Of a DNA stretch of 34,090 nt, positions 414-29,247 are shown one piece after another. The stretch is taken from contig JAYVGF010000094.1 in NCBI GenBank assembly GCA_043772415.1, forward strand, positions 1 through 34,090, given 5' to 3'. Below the pieces are notes generated by a model that saw nothing but the letters and a program-made list of their open reading frames with translations, did no database searches and had not been told where the DNA came from. The stretch's first letter is position 1, and each line of letters begins with the position of its first letter. The stretch is from Betaproteobacteria bacterium. Its GTDB lineage: Bacteria > Pseudomonadota > Gammaproteobacteria > Burkholderiales > JBEEJL01. Position numbers and translations under genes: made by a program.

Positions 414-1763
414 TTAGTTCTTTTCAGTAATCTCGGCGCCAGCATTTCCATCGGCAAACGTAATGCGAACACTTTCTTTCACTTTTACATTTTTTGCCGA
501 ACGGATTATTTCGTCGCGCGCGTTATGTACCAAACTATAACCGCGTTCCAACACCGCTTGCGGATTCAGTTGTGCCAATTGCGATTTCAACGATTTCAAA
601 TCGGTATTACGTTGTTGCATCAAGTTCAATTGACTGCGGCGCAGTCGCTGAGCGAGTTGTTTTTGGCCTGTGGCCAATAAATCAAGCGAAGGTTTTGTGC
701 CGAGTAACTGGTTTCTGAGTTGTTGTAATTCCATCCGCTGGGTTTCGACCACTCTTTGTATGGCTTGGCGTAAGCGCGTTTGCCATTGCGTGAGTTGTGC
801 GCCGTCGCGTTGCAGTCTTTGTGTGGGCGAGAGCAATAGGCGGGAAAGGTGGTCGAGCTTTTGCATGTTGGTTTCCAGCCAGGCTTGCATCTGCCGGTTG
901 GCGCGCGAACGTAGTTGCGCGAGGTGACGGCGCAGGTCTTCGCCGTTGGGGGTGATAAGCTCGGCTGCTGCGGTCGGCGTGGGTGCGCGCAGGTCGGCGA
1001 CAAAATCGGCGATGGTGAAATCGGTTTCGTGGCCGACGCCGCAGACGATGGGGATATGCGAGTGGGCGATGGCGCGGGCGACGCGTTCGTCGTTGAATTG
1101 CCACAGGTCTTCGATGCTGCCGCCACCGCGACATAATATGAGCACATCGCATTCACTGCGTTTGTTGGCGGCGTAAATGGCGGCGGTGATTTTTTCTGCC
1201 GCGCCTTCGCCTTGCACCGGTGTAGGATAAATGACGACAGGAATATTCGGCATCCGCCGCGCCAAGGTGGTCAATACATCGCGTATCGCTGCTGTCGCAG
1301 TCGAAGTAATCACGCCGATTTGCTTGGGCAGTTGCGGCAGCGGTTTTTTTCGTGCCGGGTCGAACAGCCCTTCGGCGTTGAGTTTGGCTTTGAGTTTTTC
1401 GTAGGCTTCATACAGCGCACCCAAACCGGCGCGGCGCATGTTTTCCACTGTGAGTTGAAAGTCGCCGCGCGCTTCATATAAAGTGGCCAGCGCGCGCACT
1501 TCGACTTGCACGCCTTCGGTCGGCACCCAATCGAGGGCCGCGTTTTTGTGGCGGAACATCACACAGCGGACTTGGGCGGTGGCGTCTTTGAGTGAAAAAT
1601 ACCAGTGGCCGGACGCGGCGCGGGTCAAATTGGAGATTTCGCCGCTCACCCATTGCAAGGCAAAACGCTGTTCGACCAGTTGTTTGACCTGGCGATTGAG
1701 CTCGCTCACCGAAATCACGGCGGCTTGAGACGAAGTTGAGTTTTGAGAGTCAGAAAAAAGCAT
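414..1763 (-). CDS. xseA: Exodeoxyribonuclease VII large subunit
   Basis: Long ORF with an OB-fold N-terminus ([21 protein letters not shown]), a GGGS.EDLW.FNDE catalytic core and a C-terminal coiled coil. The track start at 1781 is a TTG; the first ATG is at 1763. Confidence 0.9.
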
Positions 1764-1902
1764 AAGCTGATGGTAGCACAACGAAAATTCAGTCTTTCGG
1801 CTGCTTTTTTCAGAGGCTATTCTAGATCAAAAAATGGAAGGGAAAGCCAAAAGCATCCACCGGAACGAGGCCGGTTCGAAGAGTCAAGTAGGACAACAAA
1901 AT

Positions 1903-1920
1903 AAATCCGCCAGCGGATTT
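1903..1920. terminator. Hairpin AAATCCGC-CA-GCGGATTT flanked by A/T tracts (bidirectional terminator-like)
   Basis: Perfect 8-bp stem. On the minus strand it is followed by ATTTTGTTG. No annotated gene ends here. Confidence 0.3.
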
Positions 1921-1926
1921 AATATT

Positions 1927-1957
1927 AAAATAACTATATGATTTAATTGAAATATTT
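1927..1957 (-). repeat. AT-rich ~30-bp dispersed repeat, copy 1 (reverse orientation)
   Basis: The reverse complement AAATATTTCAATTAAATCATATAGTTATTTT matches the 10736..10766 copy at about 24 of 28 positions. Confidence 0.6.
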
Positions 1958-2028
1958 AATAAGATGCTTTTTTGAGCAATGAAGAAAAAAGCCTTGTGCC
2001 AGCAAGAGTTAAGCATCTCGCCCCAAGC

Positions 2029-2063
2029 TTAACCACAACTTTATCCACAGAGATTGTGGATGA
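2029..2063. promoter_or_regulatory. Cluster of three DnaA-box-like 9-mers
   Basis: TTAACCACA (2029-2037, one mismatch), TTATCCACA (2041-2049, perfect consensus) and inverted TGTGGATGA (2055-2063, = TCATCCACA). The last two form ATCCACA-N5-TGTGGAT. An approximately 20% GC tract at 1905-1985 is adjacent. Confidence 0.45.
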
Positions 2064-2240
2064 TTTATTTGCGTTAAAAACTTGCTAATTGGCAAAATTT
2101 TTGCGTCAACAAAAAATGATGCGTCAGCGCGCATTTCTTTCTTTATATTCAGCGAGCTTGTCGAAAATCCGCCTAGCGGCTAAAGTGTCGGACATTGCTG
2201 ATCTGCAGCAACGCCACCCATCCCGCTTTGGAGACTCACC

Positions 2241-2849
2241 TTGCTTTCTATTATTGAAGCGGCCGGCTGGCCGATCTGGACGCTGATTCTGGCTTCCATT
2301 ATTTCCCTGGCGATTATCGTCGAGCGCTTTCGTTTTTTGCGTGCTGAAGTCGTTGCGCCGAAAGATTTGCTCACCAAAACCATTAACCAATATAAACAAA
2401 CCGGCGTCACCAGCGAAATGCTCGGTGCCTTGCGCGACAATTCGCTGCTGGGAAAATTATTCGCCACCGCTTTATATAACGTCAAAAGCTCGCGCGATGC
2501 GATGAAAGAAGCTATCGAAGAAACCGGCCGCGTCGTGATGGTCGATTTGGAAAAATTCCTCACCTCGCTTGGTACCATTGCGTCGGTCAGCCCGCTGTTG
2601 GGTTTGTTCGGCACGGTGATCGGCATGATCGAAATTTTCGGCTCGACCAATGCAGTCGGCAGCAATCCGGCGGCGTTGGCGCACGGCATTTCCGTCGCGC
2701 TGTATAACACCGCCTTCGGTTTGATCGTCGCCGTGCCGAGCATGATTTTCTACCGTTACTTCCGCACCAAAGTCGATAACCTGTTGGTATCGATGGAGCA
2801 GGAATCGATTAAGTTGGTCGAGGTGTTGCACGGGGACCGCCGCGCATGA
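2241..2849 (+). CDS. exbB: MotA/TolQ/ExbB proton-channel family protein
   Basis: Three TM segments and the conserved C-terminal PLLGLFGTV.GMI..F and A..T..GL.VA.P motifs. TTG start with GGAG 7 nt upstream. ATGA overlap with exbD. Confidence 0.85.
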   Translation: MLSIIEAAGWPIWTLILASIISLAIIVERFRFLRAEVVAPKDLLTKTINQYKQTGVTSEMLGALRDNSLLGKLFATALYNVKSSRDAMKEAIEETGRVVMVDLEKFLTSLGTIASVSPLLGLFGTVIGMIEIFGSTNAVGSNPAALAHGISVALYNTAFGLIVAVPSMIFYRYFRTKVDNLLVSMEQESIKLVEVLHGDRRA

Positions 2850-3268
2850 ACCTGCGCCGCGGACATCATCGCGAAGACCCGGAGATCAACCTCATCGCGC
2901 TGATCGACGTGTTGTTGGTGATACTGATTTTTCTGATGGTCACGACTACTTATTCGCGTTTTTCCGAGCTGCAAATCAATTTGCCCGAATCCGGCGCGGA
3001 AGCCAATGTCACCCAGACCAAATCCAAAATCCTGCACGTCGCCGTCGATTCCAGCGGCAATGCCTTTGTGGGAAAACAACCGATTCCCACTATGCGTATT
3101 GATCTTATCGGTGCAGCGCTGACTAGTGCCGCCGCAGGCATGACCGATCCTGTCATCGCGATTAACGCTGACGCAGGGGCATCGCATCAAGCGGTGATTA
3201 ATGTGATGGAAGCCGCGCGCAGCGTGGGTCTGACGCATATAACTTTCGCTACCCAGACTAAAAAATAA
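2846..3268 (+). CDS. exbD: ExbD/TolR biopolymer transport protein
   Basis: 140 aa. The N-terminal INLIALIDVLLVILIFLMV single TM segment and periplasmic domain are typical of ExbD/TolR. Translationally coupled to exbB. Confidence 0.85.
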   Translation: MNLRRGHHREDPEINLIALIDVLLVILIFLMVTTTYSRFSELQINLPESGAEANVTQTKSKILHVAVDSSGNAFVGKQPIPTMRIDLIGAALTSAAAGMTDPVIAINADAGASHQAVINVMEAARSVGLTHITFATQTKK

Positions 3269-3294
3269 ATCTTACTTGCCGCGAGTCTCTATCC

Positions 3295-4308
3295 ATGTCT
3301 CGCTTTATTGAATCACTTTGGTACCGTATTTCTCCCTGGCATATTTTGCTCTGGCCGTTGTCGCTGCTTTACGGAACAGTGACGATGATTCGCCGCGCGT
3401 CTTATACTGCGGGCATTTTCAAAATACAAAAGTTGCCGGTTCCTGTCATCGTTGTCGGCAATATTACGGCGGGTGGCAGCGGTAAAACACCTTTGGTGAT
3501 TTGGCTTGCCGAATTCTTACGCAACAACGGTTATCAGCCCGGCGTGATCAGTCGGGGTTATGGACGTGAAGGAGATGAGACGCGCGAAGTTTCCGCGCAA
3601 AGCCAAGCAACCGATGTAGGCGACGAGCCATTGTTGATTTTCCGCCGAGCAATATGTCCGGTCGTTGTTGGCCGTAATCGAGTTGAAGCGGCGCAAACTT
3701 TGCTAGAAAAAAATCCGCAAGTAAATGTCATTATCAGCGACGATGGCTTGCAGCACTACAAGTTGACGCGCGCTATGGAGATTTGCGTTGTCGATGGTGC
3801 ACGCGGGTTCGGTAACGGCATGTTGATTCCCGCGGGCCCATTGCGTGAAACTACTGCGCGCTTGCATCTAGTGGATGCCATTATCGTCAATGGCGGAGAA
3901 AAAAATAATGTAATAAAATCAAATAGTTATAAATCATCTATGCATCTGGCCGGTGCGCAATTTTTGCACCTGAAAAACACGCAACCACCAGCCACTGCCG
4001 AAAACTTCACAGGCAAAAACATTCACGCCCTTGCCGGCATCGGTAACCCCGCGCGATTTTTTGCCCATCTCAAATCATTAGGTTTGCAATTTACCGAACA
4101 TACTTTTTCCGACCACTATGGTTTTAGTGCCAAAGATATCGCTTTTGAAAACGCAGAAGTAATACTCATGACGGAGAAAGACGCGGTAAAATGTGGCTCA
4201 TTCGCCACTGAGCAGTGCTGGTCGCTGGCAGTAAGCGCGCAACTCGACCATTCGTTTGGTGAACTTGTTCTCGCCAGGATGAAACTAATGAAGGAATCAA
4301 GATCATGA
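3295..4308 (+). CDS. lpxK: Tetraacyldisaccharide 4'-kinase
   Basis: P-loop [23 protein letters not shown] and MTEKDAVKC motifs. Lies in the conserved lpxK-trm112-kdsB arrangement. Confidence 0.92.
3903..3933 (+). repeat. AT-rich ~30-bp dispersed repeat, copy 2, embedded in frame in lpxK
   Basis: AAATAATGTAATAAAATCAAATAGTTATAAA is identical to 10736..10766 at 30 of 31 positions. It encodes ..[10 protein letters not shown].. in a variable loop between NGG and MHL. Confidence 0.8.
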
Positions 4309-4484
4309 ATCCGAAGCTGCTGGAAATTCTCGTCTGCCCGATATGCAAAGGTCCGCTAGTGTATAAAAAACCTGCCCAGGAATTAATCTGCAAAGCGGAC
4401 CGTCTCGCGTTTCCGATTAAAGACGATATTCCGGTCATGCTCGAAGCCGAAGCGCGCCAATTACCGGCCACCGAAGAAGTATGA
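4305..4484 (+). CDS. Trm112 / UPF0434 (YcaR) family small protein
   Basis: Hand translation gives [59 protein letters not shown]. At 59 aa it falls below the track cut-off. ATGA overlap with the lpxK stop; its TGA overlaps the kdsB ATG. Confidence 0.85.
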
Positions 4485-5242
4485 GCTTTCACGTCATTAT
4501 CCCCGCGCGCATGGCGTCGATGCGCTTGCCGAATAAGCCTCTCGCTGACATCGGGGGCCAGCCTATGATCGTGCGCGTCGCGCAACAGGCGGCGAAGAGC
4601 GGTGCGGCGAGCGTGACGGTGGCGGGCGATGATGCAAGAATTATTGATGCCGCTAAAGCCGCCGGCTTCAATGCGCAGATGACCGATCTGCATCACACTT
4701 CCGGCACCGAGCGCATCCATCAAGCGGCCACGCTGCTCGGCCTTGATGACGACGCCATCGTGGTCAATGTGCAGGGCGATGAGCCATGCATTCCGCCGCA
4801 ACTGATCGCGCGTGTCGCTACAGAATTGGCGCAACAAAAACATGCAGTGATGGCGACAGCGTGCCATGCGATCCACGATTCCGCAGATATGCTGAACCCG
4901 AATATTGTCAAAGTGGTGATTAACGCTGATAGCCTCGCCATGTATTTCAGCCGCGCGCCGATTCCGTACCCACGCGAGCATTTTACCCAGCATGAAGTAG
5001 ATCATTTTCCCCAAGGATTGCCGGCTTATCGTCACATCGGCATTTACGCCTACCGCGTCGGCTTTTTAAAAATTTATGCCGACCTGTCGCCGACCGCAAT
5101 GGAAAAATTTGAATCGCTGGAACAACTGCGCGTGCTATGGCATGGGTATAAAATTGCGATGAGCGTGGTCGAAGTCGCTCCGCCTGCGGGTGTCGATACG
5201 CCGGAAGATTTAGCACGAGTGCAAAAACTGTTTACACAATAA
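4481..5242 (+). CDS. kdsB: 3-deoxy-manno-octulosonate cytidylyltransferase (CMP-KDO synthetase)
   Basis: N-terminal IIPAR..S.RLP.KPL..I.G.PMI, plus VNVQGDEP and E.LEQLR.L..G motifs. Confidence 0.92.
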
Positions 5243-5253
5243 TTTTAATTTAG

Positions 5254-5922
<669 letters not shown>

Positions 5923-5964
5923 AAGCTCACCACAGAGGCACAGAGAAAAGCAAAATTAGAAACT

Positions 5965-5997
5965 GTCATTCTGAGCGATAGCGAAGAATCTGCTTTT
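5965..5997 (+). repeat. Solitary arm of the GTCATYCTGAGCG-TAGCGAAGRATCTGC repeat family
   Basis: GTCATTCTGAGCGATAGCGAAGAATCTGCTTTT matches both arms of the inverted repeat at 8250..8342. Confidence 0.75.
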
Positions 5998-6020
5998 AAA
6001 TGGTAAGCATCATTAATTAA

Positions 6021-8590: not shown

Positions 8591-8661
8591 TAGCCGCCGG
8601 GCTACCCCCGGCACTCTCATTCAGGGCTCGACTCATTCAGTCGAGGATAATCGAACCAGCA

Positions 8662-8770
8662 CCCCCATCCCAACCTTCCCCCGTCAAGGGGGGAAGGAGC
8701 TTGTGCATTTGTTGTTCGCACGTAGGGGATAAATTTGCAAGCCTTACGCGTGCGCGCGGCGCACCCTACA
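8662..8770. repeat. Composite ~110-bp intergenic repeat, copy B
   Basis: Aligns with 40..148 and ends 3 nt before the stop of the minus-strand DUF2147 gene, the same relative position as copy A behind the dodecin gene. Confidence 0.8.
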
Positions 8771-10735: not shown

Positions 10736-10766
10736 AAATAATTTAATAAAATCAAATAGTTATAAA
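10736..10766 (+). repeat. AT-rich ~30-bp dispersed repeat, copy 4 (reference copy)
   Basis: AAATAATTTAATAAAATCAAATAGTTATAAA lies in the divergent intergenic region. The core AATCAAATAGTTA fits the IHF consensus WATCAANNNNTTR. Confidence 0.8.
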
Positions 10767-20012: not shown

Positions 20013-20079
20013 AGTGTGCCTGTTTGATCTTGCCGGGAACCGATGCGCGGCTGATAATGCCGCACAGTCTGTAGAAAAA

Positions 20080-20511
20080 ATGAATGAATTCATGCCTATT
20101 ATAGCGCTTTCCAAATCACGTCAACTTATCGGGCTGCTGCTCTGCGTGCATGGGCTTACCCTGTTGGTCATCTGGCTACTGCCGTGGCCAATAAGGTGGC
20201 GCGGCTTGTTGTCGCTATTGATAGCGGCAAGCTTGGCGTTTTATCTGCTGCGCGACGCTTATAAAACTTTGCGTCATTCCGTTATAGGACTCAAATGCTT
20301 GCCGGATAATCAGCTTGAGCTGCAACTTAAAAGCGGCGAGTGGTTTACTGCATCGCTACAATCCGGCAGTTTCGTCGCGCCCTATCTCACCACCTTGGCC
20401 TATCGTCCTGAAGATAAATATTTTAACCGCTATGTTCTCATTGTGCCCGATATGCTCGACGTGGAAACCTTCCGTGAGTTACGCACACATCTGCGCTGGA
20501 AAAGCCCTTGA
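20080..20511 (+). CDS. YgfX/CptA-like inner-membrane protein (DUF1434)
   Basis: Two TM segments (LLLCVHGLTLLVIWLLPWP; LLSLLIAASLAFYLL) and a C-terminal D.E.FRELR..L motif resemble E. coli YgfX. It is divergent from ygfZ, as in enterobacteria. Confidence 0.6.
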   Translation: MNEFMPIIALSKSRQLIGLLLCVHGLTLLVIWLLPWPIRWRGLLSLLIAASLAFYLLRDAYKTLRHSVIGLKCLPDNQLELQLKSGEWFTASLQSGSFVAPYLTTLAYRPEDKYFNRYVLIVPDMLDVETFRELRTHLRWKSP

Positions 20512-25592: not shown

Positions 25593-27413
25593 ATGCAGAT
25601 CAAAAAGTTTTTTTTAGTAATATTTTTGACGCACATTTTACTTCTGCCTGCCTGCATCACGCCGGCAACGAATAATATTAACTATTTGAATATAAACAAT
25701 TTTTTTGAAGATTATTTTCGCAATAGTGTCCTCAAAAATCCTGAGCGGATAAGCTACCTCACGCTGCAAAAAAAATATGATGCCGAATCAGCCGATGCAA
25801 ATTTGACTGATCGTAGCGATGCTTTTGGGCTGCAAAGGCTGCAGGAAGAAAAAGCTGCAAGAGCCTCATTAAAGCGCTTTGACCGGACAGCCTTATCTCC
25901 ATCGGATAAATTGTCTTACGATGTATTGCTGCACAATCTACATAACCTTGAAGCCGACGAACGATTTTTTTATCACGGCTATGGTTTGAATCAAATGGAC
26001 GGCGTGCATACCGAGTTGCCATCGTTAATGCTTAACGTACATCAAATCAAATCTCTGCGCGACGCGGAAAATTATGTGATGCGTCTCGGCCAGTTCAAAG
26101 CTGCTTTTACGCAAACCATCGATGGCTTAAAACAACGCCAGCAACGCGGCATTGCGCCGCCGCGTTTCGCGCTGGAAAAAGCTTTGGCCAATATCAAAAA
26201 GTTTATTGAGCCTGCACAAGCGCAACATGTGTTGTTCACCAATCTGCAAAAGAAAATCGATGCATTGAATGATGTGGATGCGGCCGCTAAAAAACGTGTG
26301 CTAGCCGATGCTGAAAAAGCCATGAGCGCGTCGGTGTATCCGGCTTATCAACAATTGGCGGCCCATCTCGAAGCTTGGTTACCGCGAGTGAAAAATAATC
26401 ACGGCGCTTGGGCCTTGCCGGATGGCGAGGCTTATTACGCTTATCAAGTGCGCGAAAACACCAGCACTGATATGAAGCCGGAAGAAATCCATCAGTTGGG
26501 TTTAGCTGAAGTGAAGCGCATCGAAACGGAGATGCGCGCCATATTGGACAGTTTGGGTTATCGCGGCGGTAGCGTGGCGGCGGATATGAAAAAATTGGAT
26601 GCGGATCCACTGTCCAAATATCAAGATGCTTCCGAGGCGACTAAAAAACAAATCCTTGTCGATTATCAAAAAATTGTCGATGATATCAATGTGCGTATCG
26701 CCGGTTCGTTCGATATCCTGCCCATGGCAAAACTCGAAGTGCGCGCCGTGCCCGATTATCTCGAAGCGACTTCGCCCGCTGCGTATTACGAATTGCCCGC
26801 CAGCGACGGCTCGCGTCCGGGTGCTTTCTACCGTAATTTGTACAGTATTGATGACGTTAAAAAATATGAAATGAAAACCCTGGCCTATCATGAAGCCGTA
26901 CCGGGACATCATTTTCAATATGCCTTGGCGCAAGAGCTGAGCCTGCCGATGTTTCGCAAATATTCCGGCTACAACGCCTATGGCGAAGGCTGGGCACTCT
27001 ACGCCGAACGACTCGCTTGGGAAATGGGCGCGTATCAAAAAGATCCACGCGGAGATTTAGGCCGACTGGCCAATGAATTGTGGCGCGCGAGGCGTTTGGT
27101 TGTGGATACCGGCATCCATCATAAAAAATGGACGCGCGAACAAGCCATCGATTTTATGAGCGGTGGTATCAGCCCGCCGAGCCTCGACAACGTGATCGAA
27201 GTCGAGCGCTATTTCGTCTGGCCAGGGCAGGCGCTGGGTTACAAAATCGGCCAACTGAAAATCCTGCAACTGCGCGACAAAGCGCGCAAAGCATTAGGCG
27301 CAAAATTTGCACTCAAGGATTTTCACAATGTTGTGTTGACCAATGGCAGCTTGCCGCTGACTTTGTTGGAACAATTGGTGGATGAATATATTGCGCGCAA
27401 ACAAACGACGTGA
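25593..27413 (+). CDS. DUF885 domain-containing lipoprotein
   Basis: Lipobox LLPAC. The family signature HEAVPGHHFQ is present, along with the GEGWA.Y.E and D.G+H motifs. RBS AGGAGAGG. Confidence 0.85.
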   Translation: MQIKKFFLVIFLTHILLLPACITPATNNINYLNINNFFEDYFRNSVLKNPERISYLTLQKKYDAESADANLTDRSDAFGLQRLQEEKAARASLKRFDRTALSPSDKLSYDVLLHNLHNLEADERFFYHGYGLNQMDGVHTELPSLMLNVHQIKSLRDAENYVMRLGQFKAAFTQTIDGLKQRQQRGIAPPRFALEKALANIKKFIEPAQAQHVLFTNLQKKIDALNDVDAAAKKRVLADAEKAMSASVYPAYQQLAAHLEAWLPRVKNNHGAWALPDGEAYYAYQVRENTSTDMKPEEIHQLGLAEVKRIETEMRAILDSLGYRGGSVAADMKKLDADPLSKYQDASEATKKQILVDYQKIVDDINVRIAGSFDILPMAKLEVRAVPDYLEATSPAAYYELPASDGSRPGAFYRNLYSIDDVKKYEMKTLAYHEAVPGHHFQYALAQELSLPMFRKYSGYNAYGEGWALYAERLAWEMGAYQKDPRGDLGRLANELWRARRLVVDTGIHHKKWTREQAIDFMSGGISPPSLDNVIEVERYFVWPGQALGYKIGQLKILQLRDKARKALGAKFALKDFHNVVLTNGSLPLTLLEQLVDEYIARKQTT

Positions 27414-27468
27414 GTTAGAGCAACGGCGTAATGAACAACGGGCCATCATGTGTGATGGCCCGTTTGTT
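27291..27468 (+). repeat. Direct repeat, copy 1 (DUF885 3' end plus terminator)
   Basis: The 123 coding nt differ at 7 positions from 28190-28312. The terminator hairpin is shared with 28341-28368. Confidence 0.9.
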
Positions 27469-27470
27469 TT
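27437..27470 (+). terminator. Rho-independent terminator after DUF885
   Basis: AACGGGCCATCA-TGTG-TGATGGCCCGTT followed by TGTTTT. Confidence 0.8.
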
Positions 27471-27549
27471 GTAGCGCACGCTGGCGGTGCAGGTTGCCGT
27501 TGGCGTCATAAAGATTGCTGCTGGTCGTCGCTTACCATCAGAAAATAGC

Positions 27550-27578
27550 TTGACACTATGTAATCGTTCGATTACAAT
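27550..27578 (+). promoter_or_regulatory. Consensus sigma70 promoter with embedded palindromic operator (TA cassette)
   Basis: TTGACA (27550-55), 17 nt, then TACAAT (27573-78). The palindrome GTAATCG-TT-CGATTAC (27560-75) spans the spacer and the -10. The toxin ATG is 7 nt after the -10. Confidence 0.65.
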
Positions 27579-27584
27579 CATTTT

Positions 27585-27878
27585 ATGTTCTCGATCAGGC
27601 CGCTTCCCGAATTCACCAGTTGGCTTGATGACCTTGCCGACGCAACGGTGCGCGGTGTGGTGGTGGCCAGAATCAAGCGATTGGAGCGGGGACTGATGGG
27701 TGACGTCGAGCCGATTGGCGAAGGCGTGTTGGAGTTGCGCATACATATTGGGGCTGGCTGGCGCGTGTACTTCACACAACGCGGTGCGCAAATAATAGTG
27801 TTGTTGGCAGGCGGTTCTAAGCGTTCGCAGAAGGCCGATATTAAGCGTGCCAAGACGCTAGCGGCTTTGTTGGATTGA
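27585..27878 (+). CDS. Type II toxin, RelE/ParE superfamily (addiction-module killer protein, TIGR02683-like)
   Basis: 97 aa. F..WL..L.D......+..RI.RL..G..GD.EP.GEGV.ELR...G.G.RVYF.Q.G....+LL.GG.K..Q..DI..A pattern. Confidence 0.8.
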   Translation: MFSIRPLPEFTSWLDDLADATVRGVVVARIKRLERGLMGDVEPIGEGVLELRIHIGAGWRVYFTQRGAQIIVLLAGGSKRSQKADIKRAKTLAALLD

Positions 27879-27893
27879 CTGGAGGAAATAGAC

Positions 27894-28196
27894 ATGACTA
27901 AACGCATTAAAGTGGCTGATTTGCCCGAGTTCGACGCCACGCCTTACCTTGACAGTGAGGCGTCCATCGCCGCTTACTTGACCGATATTTTAGAAGCAAA
28001 CGATGCCGCTTTACTGGCGGCGGCGCTGGGCGATATTGCCCGCGCACATGGCATGGCGGAGATAGCCAAAGCGGCCGGCATCACCCGCGAGGCCCTCTAC
28101 AAAGCGTTGCGCCCTGGTAGTGCCCCACGTTTTGACACCGTTAGTCGTGTATGCACAGCGCTTGGCGTGCGTCTGGTAGCGCAGGCTGTGCATTAG
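27894..28196 (+). CDS. Type II antitoxin, HTH (addiction-module antidote protein, TIGR02684/HigA-like)
   Basis: 100 aa. FD...YL.......AYL.........L..AL.DIARA.GM..+A...G++RE.LYKAL.....P.F.T...V..ALG++L pattern. GGAGG RBS. Its last His codon and TAG stop lie inside the repeat junction GCATTAGGCG. Confidence 0.8.
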   Translation: MTKRIKVADLPEFDATPYLDSEASIAAYLTDILEANDAALLAAALGDIARAHGMAEIAKAAGITREALYKALRPGSAPRFDTVSRVCTALGVRLVAQAVH

Positions 28197-28312
28197 GCGC
28201 GAAATTTGTGCTCAAGGATTTTCATAATGTTGTGTTGACCAATGGCAGCCTGCCGCTGACTTTGTTGGAACAATTGGTGGATGAATATATTGCGCGAAAA
28301 CAAGCGACGTGA
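28190..28312 (+). pseudogene. Orphan 3'-terminal fragment of a DUF885 gene (last 40 codons plus stop)
   Basis: Translates in frame to ALGAKFVLKDFHNVVLTNGSLPLTLLEQLVDEYIARKQAT*, against ..ALGAKFALKDFHNVVLTNGSLPLTLLEQLVDEYIARKQTT* at 27291-27413. It has no start codon or upstream coding sequence. Confidence 0.8.
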
Positions 28313-28374
28313 TGTTGTGAAGCTAAGATGAGGAATTAAAAAACGGGCCATCATGCGATGGCCCGTTTTATTTT
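28190..28374 (+). repeat. Direct repeat, copy 2 (DUF885 3' fragment plus terminator)
   Basis: See copy 1. The spacer between stop codon and terminator has diverged, but the hairpin is conserved. Confidence 0.9.
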
Positions 28375-28375: not shown

Positions 28376-28410
28376 AATCAATATAACTATTTGATTATAT
28401 TGAATTATTT
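28376..28410 (-). repeat. AT-rich ~30-bp dispersed repeat, copy 5 (reverse orientation)
   Basis: The reverse complement AAATAATTCAATATAATCAAATAGTTATATTGATT matches the reference at about 27 of 31 positions. It overlaps the TAA stop of the PPIase gene. Confidence 0.7.
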
Positions 28411-29247
28411 CTCTTCAATTTTTGCCTTGGCGCGCATCTCGGCGATCATGGTTTCGATTTGCTGTTGTTGCAGGCGCGGCTTGAGTTGTTCTTTCACTTG
28501 ATTGAACTCAGGCTTTTTCGCGTCGCGTGAATCCTCCAGTTTGATGATGTGATAACCGAAGTCACTCTTCACTGGTGTTTGGCTGAAGGCGCCTTTTTTC
28601 AGAGCGACCATCGCGTCGGAGAACGGTTTAACGAAACGGTTCGGCGCTTGCCATTCGAGGTCGCCGCCATTTTTTGCCGAGCCTGCGTCTTTTGATTTGG
28701 CCGTGGCAATTTTGGCGAAGTCGCCTTTTTTGTTCAGCTCGGCGATGATGGCTTTGGCTTCATCTTCTTTCTCTACGAGTATATGTTTGGCGTGATATTC
28801 CTTGTCGCCCATCAGCGCGGTCATTTTTTCGTATTCGGCTTTGAGCAATTCGTCTTTGACCGGGTTGGCTTTGACGTATTCGCCTATCGCAGCGCGGCCC
28901 AAAATTTGTTGACGCATCATTTCCAATTGCATCGCGGTTTCAGGATTTTTATCCAGGCCTTTTTTCGTCGCTTCTTGCACGAGGATTTCCTGGTTGACCA
29001 GATTTTCTTTCACCATGTTGTGCAGTTCGGCGGAGTCGGGCTGGCCTTGCTGTTTGGCCATGTTGGCCATGAATTCAAAACGCGCGGCGGGAATCAATAC
29101 GCCGTTGACGCTGACTGATTTGGCCGGCACTTTTGCGACGGCGGTTTTTTCCGCAGGCTTGGCGGCAGCATCAGGTCCTTCGGCATAAGCGAAGGTAGTG
29201 AAAAGGGTAGCAACAGCCAGGGCCAGCAAAGATTTTTGATAAGACAT
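28405..29247 (-). CDS. Periplasmic peptidylprolyl isomerase, parvulin (PpiC) type
   Basis: Signal peptide, a SurA-like N-terminal chaperone region, and a parvulin domain (HILV..E..A, S.D..SA..GGDL.W and GYHIIK motifs). Confidence 0.85.
   Translation of the reverse strand: MSYQKSLLALAVATLFTTFAYAEGPDAAAKPAEKTAVAKVPAKSVSVNGVLIPAARFEFMANMAKQQGQPDSAELHNMVKENLVNQEILVQEATKKGLDKNPETAMQLEMMRQQILGRAAIGEYVKANPVKDELLKAEYEKMTALMGDKEYHAKHILVEKEDEAKAIIAELNKKGDFAKIATAKSKDAGSAKNGGDLEWQAPNRFVKPFSDAMVALKKGAFSQTPVKSDFGYHIIKLEDSRDAKKPEFNQVKEQLKPRLQQQQIETMIAEMRAKAKIEEK

Follow-up and report, generated by a model that had tools for sequence, protein, structure and literature searches.

A toxin–antitoxin operon between two copies of a DUF885 gene end: a candidate scar of an e14-type integrative element

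Introduction

How does a toxin–antitoxin (TA) operon that is accompanied by no recombinase gene come to lie between two copies of the 3' end of a host gene? The question is raised by a stretch of 34,090 nucleotides (nt) from a Betaproteobacteria bacterium (contig JAYVGF010000094.1), in which a gene of the DUF885 family is followed by a small TA operon and then by a second copy of its own last 123 nt. Chromosomal TA modules very often stand alone between core genes, with a route of arrival that can no longer be traced, and this locus has kept a trace of it. The history that we favour, and in which we place about as much belief as doubt, is that the locus is the scar of an integrative element of the type of e14, a prophage of Escherichia coli K-12, from which the other genes, the integrase included, were deleted and the addictive TA operon was left. 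Below, "the window" is the whole 34,090-nt stretch, and coordinates are counted from its first letter. L-numbers (L083, L090 and so on) denote the contigs or loci that were compared, and P-numbers (P0002 and so on) denote DUF885 orthologue proteins.

Two allele-like copies of the DUF885 gene end

The DUF885 gene (25593-27413, forward strand), the target of the event, is intact and encodes a protein of 606 amino acids that matches Pfam PF05960 over profile positions 12-532 of 532 (E = 3e-165). Its terminal 123 nt with the stop codon, that is, its final 41 codons (27291-27413, forward strand; copy 1, attL-like), recur on the same strand at 28190-28312 (copy 2, attR-like), as identified by a repeat search and pairwise alignment. 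Copy 2 is a displaced, promoterless 3' fragment that is matched by profile positions 503-532 of PF05960. The two copies constitute one repeat family with seven substitutions and no indels (94.3% identity in the pairwise alignment), and no other long direct repeat of this kind is present across the 34-kb window. The start of the repeat coincides with a codon boundary, and the reading frame of copy 2 is open, with neither a frameshift nor a stop. The first 11 nt are identical between the copies, the longest identical run is 46 nt, and the GC content of the copies is 44-45%.

The likeness extends beyond the stop codon, where a spacer of 23 nt in copy 1 and 29 nt in copy 2, which cannot be aligned, is followed in both cases by the hairpin ACGGGCCATCA..TGATGGCCCGT with a T tract. 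The 12-bp stem of this hairpin is identical in the two copies, and homology breaks off directly past the T tract. Both hairpins are called as intrinsic terminators in a terminator scan. Terminator 1 (27437-27473, forward strand; -25.0 kcal/mol, z = -4.95 on folding) consists of a 12-bp G+C-rich stem and a T tract, and its upstream A tract is interrupted (AACAAC). Terminator 2 (28340-28374) consists of a 13-bp stem between an upstream A tract and a downstream T tract, which makes it bidirectional (-22.6 kcal/mol on the forward and -22.1 kcal/mol on the reverse strand, z = -5.4). None of 200 shuffled sequences folded as well as either terminator. Terminator 2 is now predicted to close the TA operon on one strand and, on the other, the convergent gene for a PpiC/SurA-type peptidyl-prolyl isomerase (PPIase; 28405-29247, reverse strand; assigned by the Rotamase families and by synteny). 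The repeat search, the alignment and the folding agree with the original prediction for this locus, made from the sequence alone, which had described a 123-nt repeat with seven substitutions, an open frame and a shared terminator hairpin.

The distribution of the differences is informative about how the copies diverged. The seven substitutions occupy six codons, in four of which the change is silent, whereas the other two alter the protein (A/V and T/A); counted by nucleotide, five of the seven are silent. Divergence is 5.7% in the coding part, compared with a random-like spacer in which 17 of the 30 aligned columns differ (Fisher p = 1.4e-9). Because decay of a non-coding duplicate in place should produce uniform divergence, with most of the changes non-silent, the copies look like orthologous alleles that evolved under selection in separate lineages, and not like a fresh duplication. 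Furthermore, since each copy is 12-14 substitutions away from the DUF885 gene of an 86% identical relative, compared with seven between the copies, one of them would be a foreign allele, its source being a separate but closely related lineage with an overall identity of roughly 90%, as judged from the DUF885 identity profile. In a sliding comparison of DUF885 with its relatives, the 3' end is no outlier. The original prediction had left the choice between an imported homology arm and an old duplication; the non-uniform divergence and the predominance of silent changes fit import better and speak against duplication in place.

The TA operon and its junctions

The two 123-nt copies are separated by 776 nt, and terminator 1 and copy 2 by 716 nt; the "roughly 720 bp between the copies" given in the original prediction holds for the latter distance but not for the former. 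As it had also stated, this interval contains a consensus-like promoter, a RelE/ParE toxin and a helix-turn-helix (HTH) antitoxin, and contains no integrase, transposase or terminal inverted repeats. The only inverted repeats at the locus are the two terminator hairpins. A transposon, an insertion sequence (IS) or a miniature inverted-repeat transposable element (MITE) was rejected as an explanation on the grounds that terminal inverted repeats and a transposase are missing and that the flanking repeat is approximately 185 nt long and diverged.

The interval begins, ahead of the TA promoter, with an unmatched 74-nt segment (27474-27547), the GC content of which (55.4%) is like that of the TA operon (55.7%) and unlike that of the repeat copies. 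This segment is foreign DNA that entered together with the operon, either as an arm of an element or as a donor flank. The promoter, TTGACA-17-TACAAT (27550-27578, forward strand), matches the consensus at 11 of 12 positions in the promoter scan. A perfect palindrome, TGTAATCG-TT-CGATTACA (27559-27576; read by eye from the sequence), lies between the hexamers. The palindrome within the promoter, TGTAATCGttCGATTACA, recurs unchanged in L195 and with little change in L127, and it is presumably the operator of the antitoxin in an autoregulated TA operon.

The toxin gene (27585-27878, forward strand) is intact and encodes 97 amino acids of the RelE/ParE superfamily (HI1419-type, HigB-like, Gp49), matching TIGR02683 over profile positions 5-93 of 95 (E = 6.6e-34; 116 bits, cut-off 62.9) and PF05973 (32.4 bits, cut-off 23.9). 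After an intergenic gap of 15 nt, and with GGAGG ahead of its ATG, the antitoxin gene (27894-28196, forward strand) encodes an HTH protein of 100 amino acids (HI1420-type, HigA-like) that matches TIGR02684 over positions 2-88 of 89 (E = 1.6e-32; 111.5 bits, cut-off 53.7) and PF21716 (109 bits), the E-values for the two models being 1e-31 to 1e-32. With the toxin gene first and both partners recognized by their family models, the pair is assigned to the type II HI1419/HI1420 (HigBA-like) family. The toxin ATG is located 6 nt past the -10 hexamer and has no Shine-Dalgarno sequence (27573-27587), and the spacing is the same in L127 and L195. The toxin mRNA may be leaderless, and this arrangement could act as a built-in brake on translation of the toxin.

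The right-hand junction was defined by the limits of homology on its two sides. DNA homology to TA relatives and to Polaromonas plasmids begins at approximately 27548-27550, at the -35 hexamer, and, where the alignments reach the 3' end, stops at 28193 with a conserved His codon. The antitoxin is complete through the conserved ...LVAQAVH. Most of the aligned relatives are 101 amino acids long and end in ...LVAQAVH plus one variable residue, and in a wider set of relatives from zero to about twenty residues follow the His, at which the antitoxin of the window stops. Its TAG stop codon is DUF885 sequence (GCA TTA GGC read as G CAT TAG). Because the homology to antitoxins ends at 28193 and that to DUF885 starts at 28190, both sharing the tetranucleotide GCAT (28190-28193, forward strand), the junction of the antitoxin with copy 2 points to a microhomology join, which may represent either illegitimate recombination or the endpoint of a deletion. 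The original prediction had the downstream copy supply both the last His codon and the TAG of the antitoxin. The TAG is indeed supplied in this way, but the His codon is the antitoxin's own. The sharp left junction that it had described is not a defined end of an element: the homology start in question is a 4-nt GCAT join, and the cassettes of relatives are bounded differently.

The toxin gene is polymorphic. A deletion of 1 nt at 27680 truncates it to 36 amino acids in L083 (at about position 458 of that contig) and L084, the rest of the locus being unchanged, and L083 carries an additional L14H replacement (T to A at 27625). The toxin is intact in the window and in the Logan contig L086. The TA locus is eroding, with its toxin frameshifted in part of the population.

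Empty sites in relatives and support from other assemblies

In a protein search, the closest DUF885 orthologues were 86% (P0002), 78% (P0006, partial), 72% (P0003) and 70% (P0004) identical to that of the window; a scan of a genome collection with DUF885 yielded only relatives at 48% identity or less. Empty sites, in which DUF885 is followed by a hairpin and the PPIase gene, were found in the 72% lineage (L090-L095 and L098, the 7 of the 9 contigs listed that reach far enough downstream) and in the single contig of the 70% lineage (L099). The gene order at these sites is that of the window: GCV_T-like, CptA, DUF481, purL, DUF885, PPIase, BolA, YciI and YciB. Within the 139-182 nt that separate DUF885 from the convergent PPIase gene there is a single hairpin, similar in sequence type to those of the window, preceded by an A tract and followed by a T tract, together with a conserved motif, ATAACTATTTGATTATATT, which in the window sits past terminator 2. 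No second DUF885 tail and no tandem DUF885 paralogue was present in any relative examined, and the refutation that the original prediction had foreseen, copy 2 as the remnant of such a paralogue, found no support. Because these relatives have DUF885 and then directly PPIase, and possess only one 3' end and one terminator, the TA operon is an insertion into an ancestral DUF885-terminator-PPIase junction. The proposal that a substitute 3' end and terminator keep the host gene intact is likewise supported, and the mechanism put forward in the original prediction, in which imported DNA replaces the 3' end of the gene, is essentially right.

The DNA 3' of DUF885 varies in closer relatives (L089, 2215-2545; L100, 1630-3000). 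In the 86% relative, a cupin-like open reading frame (ORF) starts 16 nt past the DUF885 stop, and there is no terminator. In the 78% relative, DUF885 is frameshifted and is followed by small ORFs and a fragment of a DDE transposase (IS) instead of the PPIase gene. Counting the TA operon of the window, four different states of the junction downstream of DUF885 were observed.

The window corresponds to bases 1-34,090 of scaffold_744 in ENA assembly ERZ28573533, and the arrangement is not confined to this one assembly. It is present in five other assemblies from four further samples, including the contigs L083, L084 and L085, and the Logan unitigs L086 and L088 are consistent with it. Contigs from other samples span copy 1, the TA operon, copy 2 and the PPIase gene in one piece. 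L084 is a MEGAHIT contig assembled at k=141, the k-mers of which cover the 46-nt identical run and phase the copy-specific single-nucleotide polymorphisms (SNPs); a collapse of a circle and an empty site into one contig was discarded on this evidence. The copy-specific SNPs beside each junction agree in all assemblies.

Relatives of the TA operon at other loci

We collected 80 loci that encode relatives of the antitoxin (79-93% amino acid identity) and searched them for bracketing repeats, defined as direct repeats of at least 38 nt that flank the TA operon within 4.5 kb; random placements in unrelated loci served as the control. Such repeats bracket 10 of the 80 TA loci, compared with 23 of 1580 control placements (Fisher p = 1.4e-6). 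Half of the ten are gene-end repeats with no recombinase between them, and some of the others are array-type, attC-like repeats.

Three of the five gene-end cases involve tRNA genes. In L148, the 3' half of a tRNA-Met gene recurs as a 43-nt copy 3.9 kb from the gene, and between the two lie the TA operon and a BlaR1/BlaI pair, and in L151 and L156 a tRNA-Glu gene has a 45-nt copy of its 3' end at a distance of 2.3 kb, with only this TA operon and a HEPN/MNT pair between. Duplicated tRNA 3' ends are the classic footprint of integrases, so that loss of the integrase with survival of the TA operon is recurrent. In the remaining two cases, it is the 5' end of a gene that is repeated. A 111-nt, 92% identical repeat of the 5' end of an FAD-oxidase gene and the sequence upstream of it encloses only a promoter, an internally deleted toxin gene and an antitoxin gene in L127, and L144 carries a 65-nt, 88% identical repeat of the 5' end of an ATP-synthase-beta-like gene. 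The flanks enclosed together with the operon differ: 74 nt upstream and 0 nt downstream in the window, approximately 130 nt upstream and 80 nt downstream in L127, with no similarity between the flanks. These variable boundaries and unrelated flanks speak against the idea that the TA unit itself encodes the mechanism.

Polaromonas plasmids, cassette arrays and tRNA islets all harbour TA relatives. A sequence of the form GCATAAC-CCGGCG-TTCAACCGGAC-TGCCGC..CCGGTTAGC is located 15-90 nt past the antitoxin stop in L102, L138, L140, L141, L144, L145, L122, L133 and others. We take its part GCATAAC..TTCAACCGGAC to resemble the 5' half of an integron attC site (that of aadA1, the 59-be), as a candidate only. 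This suggests that the family often travels as an integron cassette, as far as can be judged from the motif. L159 is a metagenome contig of 3,122 nt with a TA relative; its ends are identical over 53 nt (1-53 and 3070-3122), and it may be a 3,069-bp circle, representing a small plasmid or an excised element. Its two larger ORFs have no Pfam match. L181-L192 (same study, BUSI22-1 samples; about 800-6000), which stem from the same environment, encode the antitoxins most similar in protein sequence (92%). These antitoxin genes belong to a row of small genes that includes several TA pairs (PemK/DUF2281 and a second HI1420-type antitoxin) as well as genes for a dioxygenase and for AHSA1 and ABM proteins, an arrangement reminiscent of a chromosomal cassette array. 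In some of these contigs the partner toxin gene carries an internal deletion, and in others it is intact.

Origin of the locus

In the history that we favour, the HigB/HigA-like operon would have been acquired horizontally on an integrative element of the e14/phage 21 type, the attachment region of which carried a DUF885 allele of its own comprising the last 123 or more nt, the stop codon, the spacer and a terminator. Site-specific integration in the 3' part of DUF885 would have fused the host gene to the tail borne by the element (copy 1 and terminator 1, attL-like) and pushed the native tail to the far end (copy 2 and the native bidirectional terminator 2, attR-like). We infer that the rest of the element, with its recombinase, was removed by one or more later deletions, which started at the antitoxin's final codon, reached the border or the interior of attR and were sealed at the GCAT microhomology. 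The TA operon would have been kept because loss of the antitoxin is lethal, and counter-selected, as long as the toxin is active. What remained would be a non-mobile TA islet, ended by the old terminator of the host gene and with a toxin that is now decaying.

Copy 2 is probably the native allele, and copy 1 the one brought in by the foreign DNA. Copy 2 is contiguous with a bidirectional terminator of the native type and with the conserved ATAACTATTTGATTATATT flank known from the empty sites. Terminator 2 has retained both the A tract and the T tract, like the terminators at the empty sites of L090 (folded) and L099 (a similar hairpin, read from the sequence). Loss of the A tract is expected in terminator 1, because a copy in this position would no longer serve the convergent PPIase gene.

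Several observations weigh against this history. Outgroup polarisation of the seven substitutions is ambiguous, with 3-4 derived states in copy 1 and 2-3 in copy 2; because of this, the assignment of the native copy draws on the A tract of the terminator only, and copy 2 is not clearly ancestral. The deletion must end 0-3 nt from the antitoxin stop and at or inside the attR homology, a coincidence that selection to keep the antitoxin explains only partly, and no P arm is left beside copy 2. We found no integrase-bearing element that uses the 3' end of DUF885, and two patterns of the DUF885 tail had no match in viral contigs. A search for a donor or parent in the fetched loci, plasmids, phages, viral contigs, ENA, NCBI and Logan revealed no second DUF885 tail. 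The 74-nt segment likewise had no match in DUF885 flanks, the 80 JGI loci with TA relatives, other TA relatives (in which homology begins at 27550 or later), plasmids or phages. Finally, part of the enrichment of repeats around TA relatives is due to attC-like array repeats and not to gene-end scars. In DNA, the identity of TA relatives to the operon does not exceed about 84%, and the 74-nt segment is missing from all of them. The DUF885 protein cluster at 90% has one member, with the next match at 86%, and the protein collection contains no recombinant DUF885 allele.

The strongest competitor, although we consider it rather unlikely, is a one-sided homologous import by homology-facilitated illegitimate recombination (HFIR). 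The donor would be a related lineage that has the TA operon just downstream of the DUF885 terminator, and natural transformation is one way in which its DNA could have entered. A fragment consisting of the donor's DUF885 with its tail, terminator, 74-nt segment and TA operon would have crossed over homologously within DUF885 on the left. On the right, where the fragment was broken off within the antitoxin's final codon, it would have been joined illegitimately at GCAT to position 27291 in the recipient, which thereby retained its own tail and terminator downstream. HFIR with microhomology joins is reportedly an established process. Its expected product has one homologous junction and one illegitimate junction at 3-10 nt of microhomology. 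The right junction of the locus, with its 4 nt of microhomology exactly where the usable TA sequence ends, would be of the latter kind. Import would account no less well than the favoured history for this microhomology and for copies that differ in the manner of alleles from two lineages with an overall identity of roughly 90%, and recombinase and arm sequences are absent. Spread of TA islets by homologous recombination at flanking core genes has been proposed (PMC13617665). However, import only moves the original insertion to an unsampled donor, and, given homology on both sides, the normal outcome would be a clean double crossover that leaves no duplication, so that a rarer event is needed. 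It also leaves unexplained the repeated tRNA 3'-end duplications around TA relatives, which are not a product of this type of recombination, and no donor configuration was found among the loci and the ENA, NCBI and Logan matches checked.

A further alternative, which we judge to be improbable, is a minimal non-autonomous integrative cassette that consists of a mimic of the gene end, a terminator, the 74 nt and the promoter-toxin-antitoxin unit, forms a circle of ~900 bp and relies for integration and excision on a recombinase supplied in trans. The antitoxin gene runs into the repeat without a single intervening base and ends at a stop codon within it, similar to the way in which integron cassettes adjoin attC; as in the repeat of e14, both copies open with an identical 11-nt block; several TA relatives are integrase-less islets bracketed by gene-end repeats; and L159, with its 53-nt end overlap, is possibly a circle of 3.07 kb. 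Yet the boundaries vary between the window and L127, the flanks of which lack similarity, no second copy of the unit was found at other sites or in other genomes searched, and no candidate helper recombinase was found. In addition, the attR of a tyrosine recombinase normally needs arm sites, for which there is no room here.

We regard an old duplication in situ as very improbable. In this scenario, an illegitimate or template-switch event would have inserted the TA operon and duplicated about 185 nt, after which the copies drifted apart. The microhomology at one junction, the fairly even spread of derived changes over both copies and the aged toxin of some strains would fit such an event. Its weak point is the non-uniform divergence, which combines 5.7% in the coding part with an unalignable spacer and an identical 12-bp stem. 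The five silent changes among seven and a copy 2 free of frameshifts and stops are contrary to neutral decay, and the intact toxin of the window argues against great age.

An assembly artefact, in which two strain variants, or a circle and an empty site, were merged via the shared repeat of a metagenome assembly, can be dismissed as extremely improbable, because contigs from other samples span the whole arrangement, the k=141 contig phases the copy-specific SNPs and those adjacent to the junctions agree across assemblies, while the breaks of the Logan unitigs L086 and L088 inside the repeat are unsurprising, given that de Bruijn graphs break inside repeats.

Under the favoured history of integration followed by deletion, the locus would offer a concrete and datable example of the proposed path from an integrative element to a TA-only islet and then to toxin decay, with intact and frameshifted toxins coexisting in one natural population. 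About 1 in 16 of the 80 relatives are bracketed in a comparable way, which suggests that att-bracketed, integrase-less TA islets are common; they may be used to reconstruct the routes by which TA operons were acquired. No new mechanism is implied unless the trans-mobilised mini-cassette should prove right. If it were true, an attachment site would mimic the tail of a host gene and overlap the antitoxin stop, and TA islets bracketed by repeats of tRNA ends or gene ends would form one class instead of being independent wrecks.

Neighbourhood and other repeats in the window

Pfam annotation of the large ORFs and reading of the junction revealed no recombinase, transposase or attC in the window, and no tRNA, tmRNA or RNA known to Rfam is present anywhere in it. 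The other large ORFs tested are housekeeping genes: xseA, lpxK, kdsB, phosphofructokinase, CoA transferase, H+-pyrophosphatase, an ammonium transporter, a GGDEF protein, ygfZ-like, purL, bolA, yciI, yciB, etc. The order of the genes may point to a betaproteobacterium. A gene of the Cpta_toxin family (PF07254; CptA/SdhE-associated) is located in the 20014-20511 region, ~7 kb upstream (L081, 488-919). It is unrelated to the inserted cassette, because it occupies the same position in relatives that lack the TA operon.

The 14-nt motif AATCAAATAGTTAT occurs four times in the 34 kb, at 1930-1943 (reverse), 3917-3930 (forward), 10750-10763 (forward) and 28383-28396 (reverse), compared with none expected from shuffled sequences. 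It is also present in L090 (7933-7946) and L099 (6644-6657), being conserved beside the PPIase stop at 70-72% DUF885 identity. Copies are embedded in more extended AT-rich blocks (3903-3933 and 10736-10766; 97% identity), and one appears inside the lpxK reading frame. A regulatory site and an uptake-type sequence are possibilities for this motif. An interspersed repeat of about 110 nt (CACTCCCATCCCCACCTTCCCCCGTCAAGGGGG ... GCCTTACGCGTGCGCGCGGCGCACCCTACA; 36-148 and 8660-8770; 93-94% identity) looks like an intergenic element of the REP (repetitive extragenic palindromic) or MITE type.

Comparison with known systems

The proteins of the operon are ordinary members of the HI1419/HI1420 family, which they resemble in their full-length model matches, in the toxin-first order and in the strong promoter with a palindromic operator conserved in relatives; they differ only in that the antitoxin stop is borrowed from a DUF885 fragment. 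With TA cassettes of integrons, the locus shares a compact, promoter-bearing TA unit and a 3' boundary at the end of the ORF. In contrast to these, the window has no attC, no GTTRRRY/RYYYAAC pair, no intI, no attI and no array, and the flanking repeat is host coding sequence with a terminator. An integron cassette was rejected, the junction reading ATTAGGC and not GTTAGGC (by eye), the antitoxin being fused to the DUF885 fragment and the neighbours being housekeeping genes. A tRNA-targeting island was also rejected, the window containing neither a tRNA nor a tmRNA gene.

For the absence of a recombinase, which the original prediction had pointed out, decay to an att-flanked remnant offers an ordinary explanation, as described for cis-mobilizable elements (CIMEs) and for TA islets (PMC5704250, PMC13617665). 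CIMEs are decayed integrative and conjugative or integrative and mobilizable elements (ICEs or IMEs) that keep attL and attR and have lost the genes for integration and transfer (PMC5704250). At the locus, both repeat copies are kept and the recombinase is absent. CIMEs, however, were defined in Firmicutes, have short identical att cores and can be mobilized by accretion with an incoming ICE, whereas the arm beside copy 2 is replaced here by the antitoxin ORF, which makes a functional attR doubtful. No parent ICE or IME was found in the fetched loci or viral contigs.

For the TA islets of Photorhabdus, the pattern of which was described statistically, the proposed path leads from acquisition on mobile genetic elements (MGEs) through streamlining of the linked genes to toxin pseudogenisation (Belot et al. 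2026, Mol Biol Evol, PMC13617665). Our locus is similar in being a lone TA operon between core genes with no MGE genes, and the toxin frameshift in the sister assemblies L083 and L084 fits this decay path. It differs in that the flanking duplication of a gene end is kept, a feature not reported in the available part of the Photorhabdus work.

The closest parallel is e14, which does the same at E. coli icd with a near-identical anatomy, contrary to the novelty that the original prediction had implied. The prophage of E. coli K-12 contains the final 165 nt of icd, and a 165-nt pseudogene, icdC, lies at its other end; the element is 15.2 kb long, encodes intE and xisE and still excises (PMC13626634). 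When aligned here, the icd tail borne by e14 and icdC differed by 12 mismatches over the 165 nt (92.7% identity), with two amino acid changes, compared with 123 nt at 94.3% and likewise two amino acid changes in the window. The icd/icdC pair also opens with an 11-nt identical block and, past the stop, passes through a diverged stretch to a conserved terminator hairpin, homology being lost after the T tract. As in e14 and phage 21, the element would have supplied a substitute 3' end and left the native tail as a fragment at the far end. Direct repeats of a gene 3' end, with the intact gene at one end and a displaced fragment at the other, are shared by both systems, and relatives of the window have an empty attB, whereas e14 has arm DNA beside both att sites and encodes its recombinase, and the window has 716 nt with no recombinase between the repeats and an antitoxin ORF that enters the attR-like copy directly. 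Providing a protein-coding gene with a replacement 3' end and terminator is thus an established strategy of integrase-driven elements. The phenomenon is known from e14/icd, CIMEs and TA islets, and the present locus is an unusually clean and minimal example of it, with a polymorphic, eroding toxin.

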